Shown here piece after piece: positions 43,141 to 52,347 of a stretch of 64,000 nt of DNA (within the stretch, counting starts at the first letter, position 1; the number at the start of each line of letters is the position of its first letter). Source of the DNA: an uncultured delta proteobacterium (lineage in GTDB: Bacteria > Desulfobacterota > Binatia > UBA9968); the NCBI GenBank assembly GCA_963745835.1, contig CAVUZH010000014.1:544001-608000 (forward strand). The letters are read 5' to 3'. The notes under the pieces were generated by a model. That model was given only the letters and a program-made list of their open reading frames with translations, was not told the origin of the DNA and did no database searches. The position numbers were made by a program, and so were the translations under genes.

Positions 43141-44129
43141 TCACGGCCGAATTTTATACTTTCGCTCGATCTCTTCGACATAGCCGCTTTTGACTACCTT
43201 TTCGAGAATGCGCTGATCGAGAAGATCCTCGACGTTGTATTTCGCTATTTTGGGATCACGCAGCGCGACGATCTCCTGCACGGTTTTCAAGCCTTTGACC
43301 GTCACAAAGGTATACGACGTCAGATCATCGAGGAGAAGCTTGTATCCTGTTTCTGCGAGTTGCCTGTCTGTCTTGATATGTTTCTGCAGAACGGCGACAC
43401 CCTTTTCTTTCTGAGCGCGCATAACCGCACTCGCTTCTATCATCGCTTTAATAAAGTTCTCAACCGTCTGAGGATTTTTTTGAATGAAAGACTCCGCGCT
43501 CATATAAGGGCTGGAAGGAAGAGCGATCCGGCTCAAATCTAGCAGCACTTTGACCCCTAGGCCTTGGAGCCGCACCGATTGCAATTTATCCAAAGCGGCT
43601 CCGTCGATAATCCCGTTGCCAGAGCTTGGGCGATCACAGTGCTATCGCCAATCGCCTGGATACTGATGTTATCCCTCTGAGGATCCAATCCCATTTCTCT
43701 CAGCGACAACATAGTAAGGCTCCAGAGAAGCCCGCTGAAATCCTGTACGCCGACTTTTTTACCTCTCAGGTCGCGCGGATTGGTAATCGAAGGCGATACC
43801 AAAAAATCGTAGGACGCTCTTTCGGCGAACAGTGACAAGAGAATTTTGAGCTTCGCCCCCTGCGCCGCGGCGGAAAGCATACTCGACGCGCTGCCACGGA
43901 CAAACTGCACCTCATTAGAGACCAGAGCCGAAACTTGCAGAGGCGCGCTGCGGACGGTGACAAGATCCGCCTCCAATCCATGCTTGGCAAAGATTCCTTC
44001 GTCCTTGGCAAGCCAGAGAGGAGTCCCCGCCGCAGCCACACCGGAGTACGCAACTCTGATGGACTCGGCCTGAAGCGGTGAAGCAAACAGAACCACAGCT
44101 ATAATGATCGAGAATGTTTTGGCAAGCAT
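43141..44129 (-). pseudogene. NMT1/SsuA-like substrate-binding protein, frameshifted near 43610
   Basis: signal peptide, PLWLAKDEGIFAKHGL, DLRGKKVG; C-terminal half in an adjacent frame. Confidence 0.8.
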
Positions 44130-44560
44130 AGATCATCCTCCTCGAAATTGCTTCTAGAGAATTTTCTACGAGGAACCGCGACATCCGTCATCAGCTTCGA
44201 ATTTTGAGTGAAGCAACAGATCTGATCCGTACATACTCGTCAGCGCTTACGGAATCAAGAAATTTCTTGTCGAGGTTGCCGATGGTAGAACAGCGCGAAG
44301 GATCCATAAAGCCAAATCAAATGTCCCCAAACACCGGTTCACACAAGAGACGCAGTATAATTCCATGAGAAAGTTTGTTGGGTTCTTTTTTCCGTTGTCA
44401 AGATGTCAGTACGAGGATGGTTTACACGCATGTATTGAATCGCGGCGGACGAGGGGTGCGAAGTCCGGTCGACAGCTTAGGAGCCGGGCTCGACGGTCAT
44501 TTCGATGATTATAATATACGGAAATAACTTTCGGCTTCTATCGGATGACTCGTTTATGTG

Positions 44561-45593: not shown

Positions 45594-45674
45594 GCCTAAC
45601 AAACGGCTTGAGAAGGACCTTCGACCCGCTCGCTCCGCTCGCTGGCCTCGCCCTCTCAGCCCGATACGTTAGGC
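45594..45674 (+). mobile_element. attC site 1
   Basis: GCCTAAC...GGCTTGAGA...TCTCAGCC...GTTAGGC. Confidence 0.88.
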
Positions 45675-46321: not shown

Positions 46322-46405
46322 CGCTGTTCGAGCTGGCGCTTGCCTCTAGACGCGACAAGTTCGGGAACGACGTGAGAGCGGACCCGCGGTCTCGGCAGAC
46401 TGGAA

Positions 46406-46447
46406 GCCCAACGAGGGCGCTCGCGGCTGAGCACTTGTCCGTTAGCA
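46406..46447 (+). mobile_element. attC site 2 (shortened)
   Basis: GCCCAAC...GCGGCTGAGC...GTTAGCA; left arm apparently deleted. Confidence 0.5.
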
Positions 46448-46475
46448 CTATGTAATGAACGACGTATCCTAATCC

Positions 46476-47132: not shown

Positions 47133-47190
47133 GCCTAACCAATCGCTTCAGACCGATCGCTAAGAGCGCCGCCTGAGCGTGGCGTTAGAC
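47133..47190 (+). mobile_element. attC site 3
   Basis: GCCTAAC...CGCTTCAG...CTGAGCG...GTTAGAC, 58 nt, starting 2 nt after the stop codon. Confidence 0.85.
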
Positions 47191-48135: not shown

Positions 48136-48202
48136 GTGTAACCACCGGCTGGAGAGTGACGCTCCGCGAGCGCAGCGGGCATCTCACCCGGACACGTTAG
48201 AC
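48136..48202 (+). mobile_element. attC site 4
   Basis: GTGTAAC...CCGGCTGGAGA...TCTCACCCGG...GTTAGAC. Confidence 0.8.
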
Positions 48203-48690: not shown

Positions 48691-48778
48691 GTCTAACCCG
48701 CGCCTTAAGACTGATGTCGAGAATGCTCGCCTTTAAGGCTCGCTTCTTTCGCCACGGCTTAGCCGCATCGAGTTAGAC
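48691..48778 (+). mobile_element. attC site 5
   Basis: GTCTAAC...GTTAGAC, 88 nt; near-identical to attC 6 and 9. Confidence 0.9.
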
Positions 48779-48782
48779 CTCG

Positions 48783-49571
48783 ATGTCGTTCAAAGGAGGA
48801 CAAGTGACTTGTTATGCGGTACATCTCGGCGATTGTGCAGGAGGTCTCTCCAAGGAGCACTACGTGTCGGCGTCGGTTCTGGAGATCGCGGGGACGGCTG
48901 TTCAAGTTACGGGCTTTCCATGGCAACCGGGGGGTGAGACGGCGCAAATCGGTACTGCTTCGCTCGCGGCAAAAATCTTATGCAAGCATCATAACGAACA
49001 GCTCTCGCCTCTTGATTCGGTCGCGAAAGTATTTCTTTCTGGCCTGAAGGCGAGCTTTCAAGAGGCATCCGAGAATCGGTTGTCGAATAGCACGTATCAA
49101 ACTTCCGGCAGCTCCTTCGAGCTTTGGTTACTCAAAGTTCTCTGCGGATTACTGCCACTTTGGAAGGTCGCTGTCCCGCACACGTGGGTCGACATTCTTT
49201 TCCAGCGGAATCCCTGGCCCCCCGAAGCCGGGTTGCACATTTTCGGAACTCCTGGGGTTGCTAGCTGGTACTTTACACTTGTCAGGGTAATGTCGGTTAT
49301 GGCTACAGAGGACCCGAGCCGAATTGCAGGAGCGAAGTTCGGGATCGGAGGACTCGCGCTGCTTCTCGCCTTGGGCACACCTAGGTTTACCGAGCCAGGT
49401 ATGCAAGCGTTGTATAGGCCAGCAGGCTTATTAATTGAGAGAGACGGAAAACAGAATGAGCATGTGCTGTCGTGGGATGATCACGGCGCACATGGGACCA
49501 TGAACCTCCGAATAACCGGCGAGATAGCGAGCGGGGTGGGACCTCGGCCAATCGTTGAGCCGGCAGGCTAA
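48783..49571 (+). CDS. hypothetical protein with HNH-like Zn motif (cassette 6)
   Basis: CYA...C...LSKEHYVS...KILCKHHNEQLSPLD; stop TAA lies within R'' of attC 6. Confidence 0.7.
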   Translation: MSFKGGQVTCYAVHLGDCAGGLSKEHYVSASVLEIAGTAVQVTGFPWQPGGETAQIGTASLAAKILCKHHNEQLSPLDSVAKVFLSGLKASFQEASENRLSNSTYQTSGSSFELWLLKVLCGLLPLWKVAVPHTWVDILFQRNPWPPEAGLHIFGTPGVASWYFTLVRVMSVMATEDPSRIAGAKFGIGGLALLLALGTPRFTEPGMQALYRPAGLLIERDGKQNEHVLSWDDHGAHGTMNLRITGEIASGVGPRPIVEPAG

Positions 49572-49646
49572 CATGAAGACCGATGTCGAAACCGCTCGCC
49601 TTCAAGGCTCGCTTGTTCATCACGAATTAGCCGCATGGCGTTAGCT
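49566..49646 (+). mobile_element. attC site 6
   Basis: GGCTAAC...GTTAGCT; same family as attC 5 and 9, with a short deletion. Confidence 0.85.
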
Positions 49647-49649
49647 TTT

Positions 49650-50030
49650 ATGGATGACATTGCCGGTAAGATGAGAATCCCTGACTGGGAGTTCAGAGTT
49701 GTCATAGGAACGACGAAAATCGATTATGATCTAGATAAGGAATACTCGAATCGCGAGAAGCATGGCTATTCTCTTGCGAGCGCCGTTTCGCTGCTTGAGC
49801 GAATCGTGTTCCCGTTTGGAGAATCGCTACCGAGCATGACCAGCGATGGCTTCATGGAAGGAGGTGAGGTTCGCCACATGCACATGAGCGTGGATGACTC
49901 ATACAACGTAGTACTTATGGTGACGACCATGCGCGACGATGAAACCGTGAGGATCATTTCTTTTCGTCGAGCGAGTGAGGAAGAACGTGAGCAGTTCTAT
50001 CAGAACACGGGCTTTCGGGAGCGCGTATAG
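49650..50030 (+). CDS. BrnT-family (DUF497) toxin-like protein (cassette 7)
   Basis: DYDLDKEYSNREKHGYSL...VTTMRDDETVRIISFRRASEEER matches the WD..K...N..KHG / RIISARRA pattern. Confidence 0.78.
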   Translation: MDDIAGKMRIPDWEFRVVIGTTKIDYDLDKEYSNREKHGYSLASAVSLLERIVFPFGESLPSMTSDGFMEGGEVRHMHMSVDDSYNVVLMVTTMRDDETVRIISFRRASEEEREQFYQNTGFRERV

Positions 50031-50031
50031 A

Positions 50032-50116
50032 AGCTAACCCGCGCTGGAGCCGACCGCGAGATCCAGTGATAGATGGCTCAATTGTACACTAGCGGCTCAG
50101 CGGCATAACGTTAGAC
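50032..50116 (+). mobile_element. attC site 7
   Basis: AGCTAAC...GCTGGAGCCG...CGGCTCAGC...GTTAGAC; R'' AAGCTAAC complements cassette start GTTAGCTT. Confidence 0.88.
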
Positions 50117-50132
50117 TCAGGGGAGTGGCACT

Positions 50133-51014
50133 ATGCCTTTCAGCTACGTCCAATTCATGACCGAATTAATGGCCCCCAAACGTTATCCGCGGCAACCCGT
50201 TTTTGCACCACCCGGGCTGACCCCGTTACGTAAGTCGATTTCCCGATCAACCATCGGCATCTTCACCAGTGCTGGCATTCAACTTCGCAGCGATACGCCT
50301 TTGGCTGAGACCAATGACCTCTCCTACCGCCTCATTGATCGCGCCGTTCCTTACTCGGACCTAACTCTCGCCCACCAGACTCCCGTCAGGGTTTGGGCGC
50401 TGGAAGATTTAAATGTTGCGTTTCCGCGAGAACGGCTCGCCGATCTTGAAGCCGAGGGAACTATCGGCCGCTTGGCGTCGCGAGCTGTCTCCATGGTGGG
50501 CTCGATCACAACATTTACGGGGTTACTGGAAAAAGTCGTGCCTGCAATTCAACGAGAACTCGAGGACCAGGGTGTCGATCTGCTTTTTCTATTTCCTTTT
50601 TGACCCGCATATCATCGGTCCGTCGGACTGATCGCGAGAGCGCTCGAAGCAAGAGGATTGCCCACCTTGTGTATGAGCACCCTTTGGGAAAACAGCATGG
50701 CGTTTAAGCCGCCGCGCACGGTTTTTCTCGATTTTCCGCTGGGCTGCCCTGCTGGGAAACCGAATGAACCTGAATTGCAGCGCATGATCCTGCGTGCGGC
50801 TCTGGAAGCAGCACCTCTTTTTGGCGAGCCCTGGAGGATCGCGCAACTTCCTTTTCAATGGTCCGAGGACGGTAATCGGGATTGGGAAGAACGCGTTAGA
50901 GAACTCTATCGTAAAGGTTTAGGAACTGTGGAGGCCCATGTGGCCGATCATCAGGCGAAGGGCGAGTCTCTCGTCGGTCAAGAAAAGGAATTCGCAATTC
51001 GGTGTAATTGCTAA
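50133..51014 (+). CDS. GrdB/PrdB-like (glycine/D-proline reductase selenoprotein B family) protein, TGA 50601-50603 = Sec (cassette 8)
   Basis: GIFTSAG, DLNVAFPRERLADLEAEGTIG, LFPF-U-PAYHRSVGLIARALEARGLPT, PPRTVFLDFPLG; both listed ORFs in one frame, 293 aa; SECIS-like hairpin. Confidence 0.85.
50614..50632 (+). promoter_or_regulatory. SECIS-like hairpin
   Basis: ATCGGTCC-GTC-GGACTGAT; loop G is the 19th nt after TGA. Confidence 0.75.
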
Positions 51015-51048
51015 AAACCCGGGCTAAAGTCCGTTTATCAACAGACTT

Positions 51049-51130
51049 GTCTAACAATCGGCTTGAGACAGACTTTCGGACCCGCTCGGCTTTGCTCGCT
51101 GGCCGCGAACTGCTCATCCTTGCGTTAGAC
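51049..51130 (+). mobile_element. attC site 8
   Basis: GTCTAAC...GTTAGAC; similar to attC 1. Confidence 0.88.
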
Positions 51131-51561: not shown

Positions 51562-51648
51562 GTCTAACCCGCGGCTTAAGAACGATGTCGAAACCGCTTA
51601 CCTTCAAGGCTCACTTGTTCATCACGGCTTAGCCGCAGCGCGTTATAC
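51562..51648 (+). mobile_element. attC site 9
   Basis: GTCTAAC..GCGGCTTAAG...CTTAGCCGC...GTTATAC. Confidence 0.9.
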
Positions 51649-52295: not shown

Positions 52296-52347
52296 GTATA
52301 ACATTCGATCGAGCCGACGAGACCGCGGGTCATCGTTAACGTTAGCC
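52296..52347 (+). mobile_element. attC site 10
   Basis: AGCGTATAAC is the exact reverse complement of cassette start GTTATACGCT; ends GTTAGCC. Confidence 0.8.

Follow-up and report, generated by a model that had tools for sequence, protein, structure and literature searches.

The closest described relatives of the gene considered here are the selenoproteins PrdB and GrdB. In PrdB the selenol of the selenocysteine (Sec) residue attacks the substrate, and a nearby Cys then resolves the intermediate. Table 2 of the Global Ocean Sampling (GOS) selenoproteome lists 'Proline reductase PrdB, pfam07355, UxxC', and passages of that account count 235 Sec and 110 Cys sequences of PrdB (PMC2398784). 'Proline reductase' selenoproteins of Anaeromyxobacter and Geobacter, and delta-proteobacterial examples in its tables, are noted in passages of an account that also discusses how the Sec-decoding trait and selenoprotein genes are transferred between bacterial genomes (PMC1794560). 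Here we analysed a stretch of 64,000 nucleotides (the window; positions 544,001 to 608,000 of contig CAVUZH010000014.1, called C14 below, assembly GCA_963745835.1) from an uncultured delta proteobacterium. We conclude that window positions 50111-51124 are very probably an integron cassette for a stand-alone, Sec-decoded GrdB/PrdB protein, which was captured once and has spread among arrays, and whose copy in this host carries a Tyr at codon 160 through error or damage. The protein family and the type of element are each known; their combination appears to be undescribed. The parts of the cassette and its borders are as follows.

50031-50116 (+): attC of the upstream BrnT-toxin cassette, 44.1 bits; its R' core GTTAGAC at 50110-50116 is the left cassette boundary, G|TTAGAC
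50111-51124 (+): the cassette, 1,014 bp, made up of a short leader with a Shine-Dalgarno sequence, one open reading frame (ORF), a 34-nt spacer and its own attC; defined by homology to loci L110-L112
50120-50125 (+): Shine-Dalgarno-like GGGGAG, 7 nt 5' of the ATG; GAGGAG in L110-L112
50133-51014 (+): ORF of the predicted PrdB-like selenoprotein, 293 aa; matches PF07355 and TIGR04483
50601-50603 (+): TGA, codon 157, predicted to be read as Sec from homologue alignments and Sec-form loci
50610-50612 (+): TAT, codon 160 (Tyr); Cys (TGT/TGC) in all other copies, with G at 50611 in sequencing runs X3 and X7
50614-50633 (+): predicted selenocysteine insertion sequence (SECIS) hairpin, an 8-bp stem with a G-U-N triloop, beginning 10 nt after the UGA; supported by conservation and covariation
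51049-51130 (+): the cassette's own attC, 82 bp, 58.7 bits, with R'' GTCTAAC and R' GTTAGAC; right cassette boundary G|TT at 51124|51125

Codon 157 and the recoding hairpin

The ORF is a frame of 293 codons with one in-frame TGA only, codon 157, which stands in the context LFPF-U-PAYHRSVGLIARALE (also written LFPF-U-PAYHRSVGL), and the encoded protein ends in C-N-C. A word-indexed search returned 318 homologues at E ≤ 0.001, the best 120 of which are mostly 292-314 aa long (a few are truncated to 267-284 aa) and at most 64% identical. The position of codon 157 is an invariant Cys in all 23 full-length Cys-form homologues that were aligned, and position 160 is a nearly invariant Cys in the same alignment, which gives the motif C-P-A-C-H-R. 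The codons agree with this picture: at the 65 of 80 genome loci covered by a motif search (the remaining 15, being partial, frameshifted or of variant motif, were left uncounted) codon 157 is TGT or TGC in 50 of 50 Cys forms and TGA in 15 of 15 Sec forms, and a sixteenth Sec form, L059, was recognised later among the loci outside that count. The TGA is kept in 25 of 26 full-length metagenome loci, the 26th, L139, being frameshifted. Exactly one in-frame TGA was found in 42 of 42 of the matches listed from 61 genomes related to the host at the level of genus, family or order.

The databases hold a trace of the same codon. Some fragments end exactly before codon 157, namely P0123 (156 aa, 83% identical) and P0142, P0171, P0201 and P0266 (34-48%), and further fragments begin right after it; these are the footprint of gene callers halting at the Sec codon. 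TGA terminates 17 of the 33 window ORFs of at least 250 aa and is thus the usual stop of this organism, therefore a reassigned genetic code is not the explanation.

The hairpin that follows the UGA was judged by comparison with relatives. Among 16 Sec forms the seven hairpin codons, +4 to +10, have zero third-base entropy with the exception of the loop N, and the codons flanking them have mostly 0.8-2 bits; the same hairpin codons vary freely in the Cys forms, at 0.9-1.7 bits. The sole Arg-to-Gln change within the hairpin (CGG to CAG) replaces a G-U pair by an A-U pair. When 26 distinct Sec forms are considered, including a paralogue type of 29-37% identity, 98.6% of 208 cells are paired, and both partners have changed in three of the eight pairs (13 cells). 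Covariation scores 0.272, as compared with 0.112 in shuffles, none of 500 shuffles attaining the observed value, and controls slid out of register pair in at most 47.6%. The spacing of 10 nt is close to the 11 nt between UGA and hairpin in fdhF of Escherichia coli.

The host genome has a second PrdB-like selenoprotein gene (L017, genome G000, contig C13:879242-880009; 35% identical, motif U-P-F-C-H-E). Its hairpin has the shape and spacing of the one in the cassette, with two compensated pairs, and therefore host SelB should already read hairpins of this design. Most of the 60 relatives searched possess a paralogue of the L017 type, with a single TGA in every case. The host also encodes the decoding machinery itself. 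On contig C22 selA (608.6 bits), selB (394.3 bits) and selD (383.4 bits) are found side by side, and tRNA-Sec (74.2 bits) lies on contig C13, all of them over their cut-offs; selD carries an in-frame TGA of its own. We propose that host SelB with Sec-tRNA(Sec) would bind the 8-bp hairpin with its G-U-N loop, and that UGA 157 would be read as Sec. Because the hairpin is part of the ORF, the cassette carries its recoding signal along, and the product would be made only in hosts having selA, selB, selC and selD, as the present host does.

Taken together, a TGA that aligns with Cys, a SECIS hairpin kept with covariation and a host genome that encodes the Sec machinery lead us to conclude from sequence that this is a selenoprotein gene with a predicted Sec at codon 157. 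That was the claim of the initial annotation, and the elements it had named (the 293-codon frame with a single TGA, the C-N-C end, the 8-bp hairpin and the exactly matching core ends) were all found again in place; the machinery on which, in its view, decoding would depend is present in the host.

The assignment of the protein to the GrdB/PrdB family, also made there, held for the superfamily and failed for PrdB itself. The protein barely passes the Pfam model PF07355 (GRDB) with 22.6 bits (E 7.6e-5; gathering cut-off 22), and residues 22-244 are homologous to TIGR04483 (PrdB; E 1.6e-35). The score on the latter, 122.7 bits, is far below the equivalog cut-off of 300 and the protein is therefore not proline reductase PrdB proper; a match to TIGR01918 (31.9 bits) is likewise under its cut-off of 65.45. 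By sequence the cassette protein is thus a member of the GrdB/PrdB 'selenoprotein B' superfamily, but not PrdB proper.

The proposal that the enzyme stands alone proved right for its surroundings: no PrdA-type or pyruvoyl partner gene was found beside the selenoprotein gene in the window or in any other context examined, and the neighbours across chromosomal contexts encode Amidohydro_2, NMT1-type binding, GST, ABC permease, MBL-fold, MOSC, xanthine dehydrogenase (XDH)-family and ADH proteins. It does not extend to the genome as a whole, since grdA (with one TGA) and five genes of the GrdE/PrdA family (PF09338) are found on contig C3, away from the cassette. That contig carries, at C3:1192467-1203229, a glycine/sarcosine/betaine-reductase-like cluster comprising the grdA gene with its in-frame TGA and three PF09338 genes out of the five in the genome; this host thus has a rich set of selenoproteins.

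The AlphaFold model of the cassette protein has a predicted local distance difference test (pLDDT) score of 94.6, falling to about 50 in the final 10 residues. A PDB sequence search with the protein gave nothing credible (best E 0.02), and a Foldseek search with the model gave no match at E ≤ 0.001, hence no structural relative. We infer that the product is a stand-alone Sec/Cys-dependent reductase. The catalytic centre of the family would be U157-x-x-C160, in which, by analogy with PrdB only, the selenol would attack the substrate, a selenenylsulfide with Cys160 would resolve the intermediate and a thiol donor would re-reduce the enzyme. Two further cysteines, Cys47 and Cys197, are both present in Cys forms and in distant Sec forms and both gone in the close clade that includes the cassette (A47 and V197 in the window). 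Their joint loss suggests, from the aligned sequences, a paired role, e.g. in a disulfide or a metal site, lost as a unit.

Boundaries, movement and origin of the cassette

The core GTTAGAC occurs at 50110-50116 and at 51124-51130, and GTCTAAC at 51049-51055 makes an exact inverse pair with it. The left R' core is 16 nt from the ATG, and the stop codon is 34 nt from the attC. Both flanking sites have the R''/L''...L'/R' anatomy of attC, and in a fold of the bottom-strand DNA the R and L boxes pair and the spacer stays unpaired. The window as a whole has 11 core-motif matches where 3.55 are expected, a number reached by none of 100 shuffles.

A metagenome scan with the gene returned 37 loci. 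Three of them are soil metagenome contigs with the same cassette: L110 (96% protein identity), L111 (93%) and L112 (92%). Across the ORF the DNA identity to these three is 82-100% per 30 nt, and it drops to 53-66% in those parts of the 3' spacer and attC that vary. The GTTAGAC core 50110-50116 and the attC R' core 51124-51130 delimit the similarity; beyond them the identity amounts to 26-65%. The downstream flanks are unrelated in all four full copies (the window, L110, L111 and L112). Upstream, L110 and L112 have one flank in common and the window and L111 each have another, which makes three flanks. Our attC model found a site directly 3' of the gene in L110, L111, L112 and L144 and further array sites in L110, L111, L140, L142 and L144. 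The partial copies L134, L140, L142 and L144 also adjoin attC sites, L134 having a full attC immediately upstream, recognised by eye. The attC-adjacent loci of the cassette are thus eight, namely the window and three full copies (four contexts) and four partial ones. As far as comparison of sequences can tell, the cassette has moved between arrays, because the unit stands behind different attC sites and among different neighbours in L110-L112 and the homology breaks at the cores; the mobility that the initial annotation had proposed is thereby borne out.

Close relatives of the gene are also found in ordinary chromosomal settings without attC, both in metagenome contigs (L113-L133, 62-90% identical) and in genomes (L018-L027, 73-88%). 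Four of the latter adjoin a divergent Amidohydro_2 gene, and three of these four an NMT1-type binding-protein gene as well. In a tree of 37 rows the four full copies of the cassette group in a single clade (support 99/94) that branches from within the non-cassette copies, and the cassette state requires one change in 98% of 200 bootstrap trees. The tree omits L101 (coordinates misfit), L121 and L128 (near-duplicates of L120 and L127), L131, L136 and L139 (extra stops or frameshift), the partial L134, L135, L137, L138 and L140-L146, and the distant Sec forms L054, L055, L059 and L067. A single nested clade fits one capture followed by movement between arrays. Among the 60 relatives of the host, only 6 have a gene of the cassette type (at least 64% identity). 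The cassette would have arisen a single time, out of a chromosomal gene in this lineage of bacteria, and attC recombination would since have placed it into several arrays.

In a genome of the same order (G041) an IS110-family transposase gene and two attC-like sites (L109, G041:C7, 4148-6618) lie 3.7 kb upstream of the orthologue. This orthologue was considered as a cassette and rejected, as it is not flanked by attC; an XDH-family gene lies between it and the attC cluster.

The array in which the window copy resides, and what is left of its integrase, consist of these features.

44369-44527 (+): 3' remnant of an integron integrase gene (intI), the last ~27 residues including the YTHV catalytic-Tyr box; TIGR02249, PRK15417
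45594-52345 (+): attC array of about ten sites in one orientation, recognised by core motifs, anatomy and a sequence model
45594-45674; ~46346-46457 (degenerate, by eye); 47133-47190; 48139-48202; 48691-48778 (+): attC sites of the array
49575-49644 (R' lost); 50031-50116; 51049-51130; 51562-51645; 52296-52345 (+): attC sites of the array, continued

Our attC model was built from an alignment of 8 sites. In the window it returned 8 sites in one orientation between 45594 and 51645, including one degenerate site outside the training set, and did not return the trained site 52296-52345 at E ≤ 1. In the whole 7.28-Mb genome it gave 10 matches, 8 of them in the window array. At 13 homologue loci it gave no site. 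A strict attC scan gave an ambiguous 51-bp match just upstream of the L027 gene. A relaxed structural scan was discarded, having produced 11 matches in the window and 7-19 in five shuffles, and its matches in homologue loci were dropped.

Positions 289-315 of TIGR02249 match window 44399-44479 (27.9 bits; E 1.5e-7), and PRK15417 matches with E 1.7e-5. The integron is incomplete, only the last ~27 intI codons being left. The array is a decayed integron, because there is only an intI stub at its head and no intact intI in the genome; an attC cluster lacking an integrase is called a CALIN in the work on IntegronFinder. Since no more than the 3' stub of intI is left, the cassette would now be fixed in the host genome and dependent on read-through transcription. 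A contig from an RNA library covers 50066-50216 with zero differences and is a weak hint of expression; contigs cannot give its level.

Contrary to the usual divergent layout, the intI stub and the cassettes share one strand, and the 3' end of the stub faces the array. The same arrangement recurs at the start of the contig, where a second integrase stub, C14:9668-9790 (-), lies near an attC-like match, C14:6811-6894 (-). Directly upstream of the window stub, at 43141-44129 (-), the ORFs 43141-43593 and 43557-44129 overlap; the latter has a match to an NMT1-type binding protein, and the pair resembles one gene split by a frameshift.

The neighbouring cassettes encode a methyltransferase, an HNH protein, an alpha/beta hydrolase, a BrnT toxin, a weakly HicB-like protein, a LysE exporter and a piece of a mechanosensitive channel. 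The attC at 49575-49644 is degenerate and has lost its R' core, therefore the ORF of 262 aa (48783-49571) and the BrnT ORF (49635-50030) form one fused cassette. In runs X1, X3 and X7, contigs match the window as far as attC cores (48778/48779; 51048-51107) and then continue in unrelated sequence, which suggests that neighbouring cassettes have also been shuffled between samples. A joint of 50116 to 51048 in X3 was set aside as it has only 27 letters on one side and probably belongs to another array.

Tyrosine at codon 160 and the alternative explanations

A number of observations weigh against our interpretation and are gathered here. The folding energy of the hairpin is no better than that of shuffles (z = 0.27), and because it is unremarkable by itself the reality of the hairpin rests on the comparison with relatives. 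Against Rfam, the segment 49900-51400 returned no match at E ≤ 10, and thus neither a SECIS nor an attC family of the curated set is recognised there. The attC model has no base pairs and scores sequence only, therefore the attC searches are sequence-only and may miss the sites of other lineages. None of 14 TIGR02249 matches in the genome is over the cut-off, so that no intact integron integrase is present. There is no promoter-like site directly upstream of the ORF, and the RNA-library contig could be contaminating DNA. The genome bin has a contamination of 9.33%, because of which it matters that the contigs with the Sec genes and contig C3 resemble C14 in composition (tetranucleotide r ≥ 0.995; GC content 0.53-0.55).

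The remaining points of this kind concern the window copy and its nearest relatives. The window copy has no Cys160 (TAT, Tyr), so the motif U-x-x-C is not present in it; among 15 aligned Sec forms it is only in this column that the window departs from a residue invariant in the other 14. In run X1, probably the source sample, contigs are lacking across 49661-50868, a segment that includes codons 157 and 160. A contig of run X7 (50468-50764) reads T for C at 50553, which changes codon 141 from CGA to TGA, and has Cys at 160; either the variant is broken or, at a depth of 6, the contig is in error. The homologue L018 (88% identical, from a metagenome-assembled genome labelled Candidatus Binatia) has an extra TAA at codon 133; it directly follows a MOSC-domain gene and is not in a cassette. 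Close copies thus show possible decay or assembly errors, and against decay it counts that 13 of 19 listed population variants are synonymous.

The evidence from other samples speaks on the Tyr more directly. Codon 160 is TGT or TGC in 25 of 25 readable metagenome copies. A contig of run X3 (from another study; 2,040 bp, two differences, same array order) has G at 50611 and so encodes Cys; its second difference is unlisted and might in principle lie in the TGA. The contig of X7, from a further study and a more divergent strain, likewise has G at 50611. We read the TAT as an assembly error or a recent allele, probably a damaging one, because an intact U-x-x-C allele occurs in the same array context in another sample. 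The initial annotation had suspected an error for TGT and had asked for the codons to be confirmed in reads; TGT in two other runs and Cys in every homologue agree with its suspicion. Its further idea, of the C-terminal CxC taking over from the missing Cys, found no support. C205, C291 and C293 are invariant among homologues, and as the CxC is invariant in every copy that keeps Cys160, it is not a replacement specific to the window copy. The low-confidence C-terminus of the model suggests instead a mobile tail that could relay electrons family-wide.

One could take the TGA for a genuine stop, or for a nonsense mutation, leaving a broken gene or two separate small genes, as standard ORF callers indeed report two ORFs here (50133-50603 and 50658-51014) and TGA is a common stop in the host genome. 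However, a TGA persists at the same codon across relatives of 29-96% identity and is always aligned with the catalytic Cys of the Cys forms, the reading frame 3' of it is conserved, the hairpin covaries and the host encodes the Sec machinery; we regard a true stop as highly improbable. Hardly better can be said for the notion that the flanking repeats belong to another palindromic family and the gene lies in ordinary chromosomal DNA. The genome does lack an intact integrase, the attC model sees sequence only and the relaxed structural scan stayed at the level of chance, but an integrase stub heads the array, the sites have R''/L''/L'/R' anatomy and AAC...GTT cores in one orientation with one site per gene, the neighbours (BrnT, HicB-like, small ORFs) are typical of cassettes, and the same selenoprotein cassette occurs in other contexts with breaks exactly at the cores.

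An integron cassette with a selenoprotein gene being thus our preferred reading, the condition of the host copy has still to be weighed. The cassette could be real and the copy dead cargo, with a true C160Y change, the integrase and the Pc promoter lost and the gene drifting to a pseudogene. This would agree with a TAT that is unique among all copies, an intI reduced to a stub, a place about seventh in the array with no promoter-like site directly upstream, and the lesions at codon 141 in X7 and codon 133 in L018. It agrees less well with an ORF that is otherwise intact, no other column invariant in the 14 Sec forms being altered, with an intact hairpin and TGA, with the prevalence of synonymous variants and with the RNA-library contig over the start of the ORF; also, the A at 50611 could be a consensus error, given that the source-like X1 has no coverage there. 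We therefore hold dead cargo to be rather unlikely, but worth keeping in mind. Much less credit is due to the thought that U-x-x-Y is a real functional allele in which the C-x-C tail or Cys205 resolves the selenium intermediate. The invariance of C205, C291 and C293 and the tail suggested to be mobile by a pLDDT of about 50 over the last 10 residues could be taken in its favour, but the CxC is equally invariant where Cys160 is kept, which leaves no sign of compensation, Tyr is found in none of the 14 other Sec forms and none of the 25 metagenome copies, and two runs read Cys. We return therefore to a mobile selenoprotein cassette whose window copy carries an erroneous or probably damaging Tyr.

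Significance and comparison with known systems

Cassettes are usually viewed as self-sufficient in any host that transcribes them; a selenoprotein cassette additionally needs the Sec machinery of its host. It can be put forward, as a tentative suggestion that may well need revision, that recoded cassettes, with the SECIS inside the ORF, form a hidden class that circulates among the soil integrons of Sec-decoding lineages, the PrdB-like cassette being the first of them to be recognised. Such cassettes would be missed or mis-annotated in surveys because gene callers split them at the TGA, and this is also a warning that cassette catalogues made with standard gene callers contain such genes cut in two. 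If a hidden class exists, integrons would be one mechanism behind the patchy and fast-changing selenoproteomes of bacteria. The combination of ORF, SECIS and attC in 1,014 bp also offers a compact natural unit for the portability of SECIS elements between hosts.

The initial annotation knew of no described selenoprotein cassette, and none was found in the literature on selenoproteins, SECIS elements, integrons, and plasmids or horizontal gene transfer within a coverage that lacks most subscription journals and supplements; the nearest cases there are 'selenocysteine lyase' cassettes, which are not selenoproteins. The words 'integron', 'plasmid' and 'mobile' are absent from the accessible passages of a recent review (PMC13188914, 2026). 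The accessible passages on 'PrdB' from GOS and the Sargasso Sea (PMC2398784, PMC1794560) do not mention integrons or cassettes either, though Table S1 of PMC2398784 may list related sequences.

The cassette protein is homologous to PrdB and GrdB, and PrdB has its Sec in the same kind of U-x-x-C motif. It differs from PrdB in that no prdA, prdC or pyruvoyl-partner gene adjoins it in the contexts examined and in its additional invariant C-terminal C-N-C and an FPLGC motif. Going by their description in the accessible passages, the stand-alone environmental 'PrdB' proteins of the GOS and Sargasso data are of the same Pfam family, have U-x-x-C and likewise coexist in Sec and Cys forms. With the cassettes of sedentary integrons our element shares a single promoterless ORF, an imperfectly palindromic attC, G|TT boundaries, toxin-antitoxin neighbours and occurrence in several arrays. 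Unlike the usual ones, its cargo needs recoding of a UGA and carries the SECIS inside the ORF, and unlike in usual integrons the integrase stub of the array lies on the cassette strand. Transfer of selenoprotein genes has so far been inferred by phylogeny only, with no vehicle named in the accessible passages of PMC1794560; here the cassette provides a concrete vehicle, and the points at which it breaks from its surroundings are visible in the sequence.

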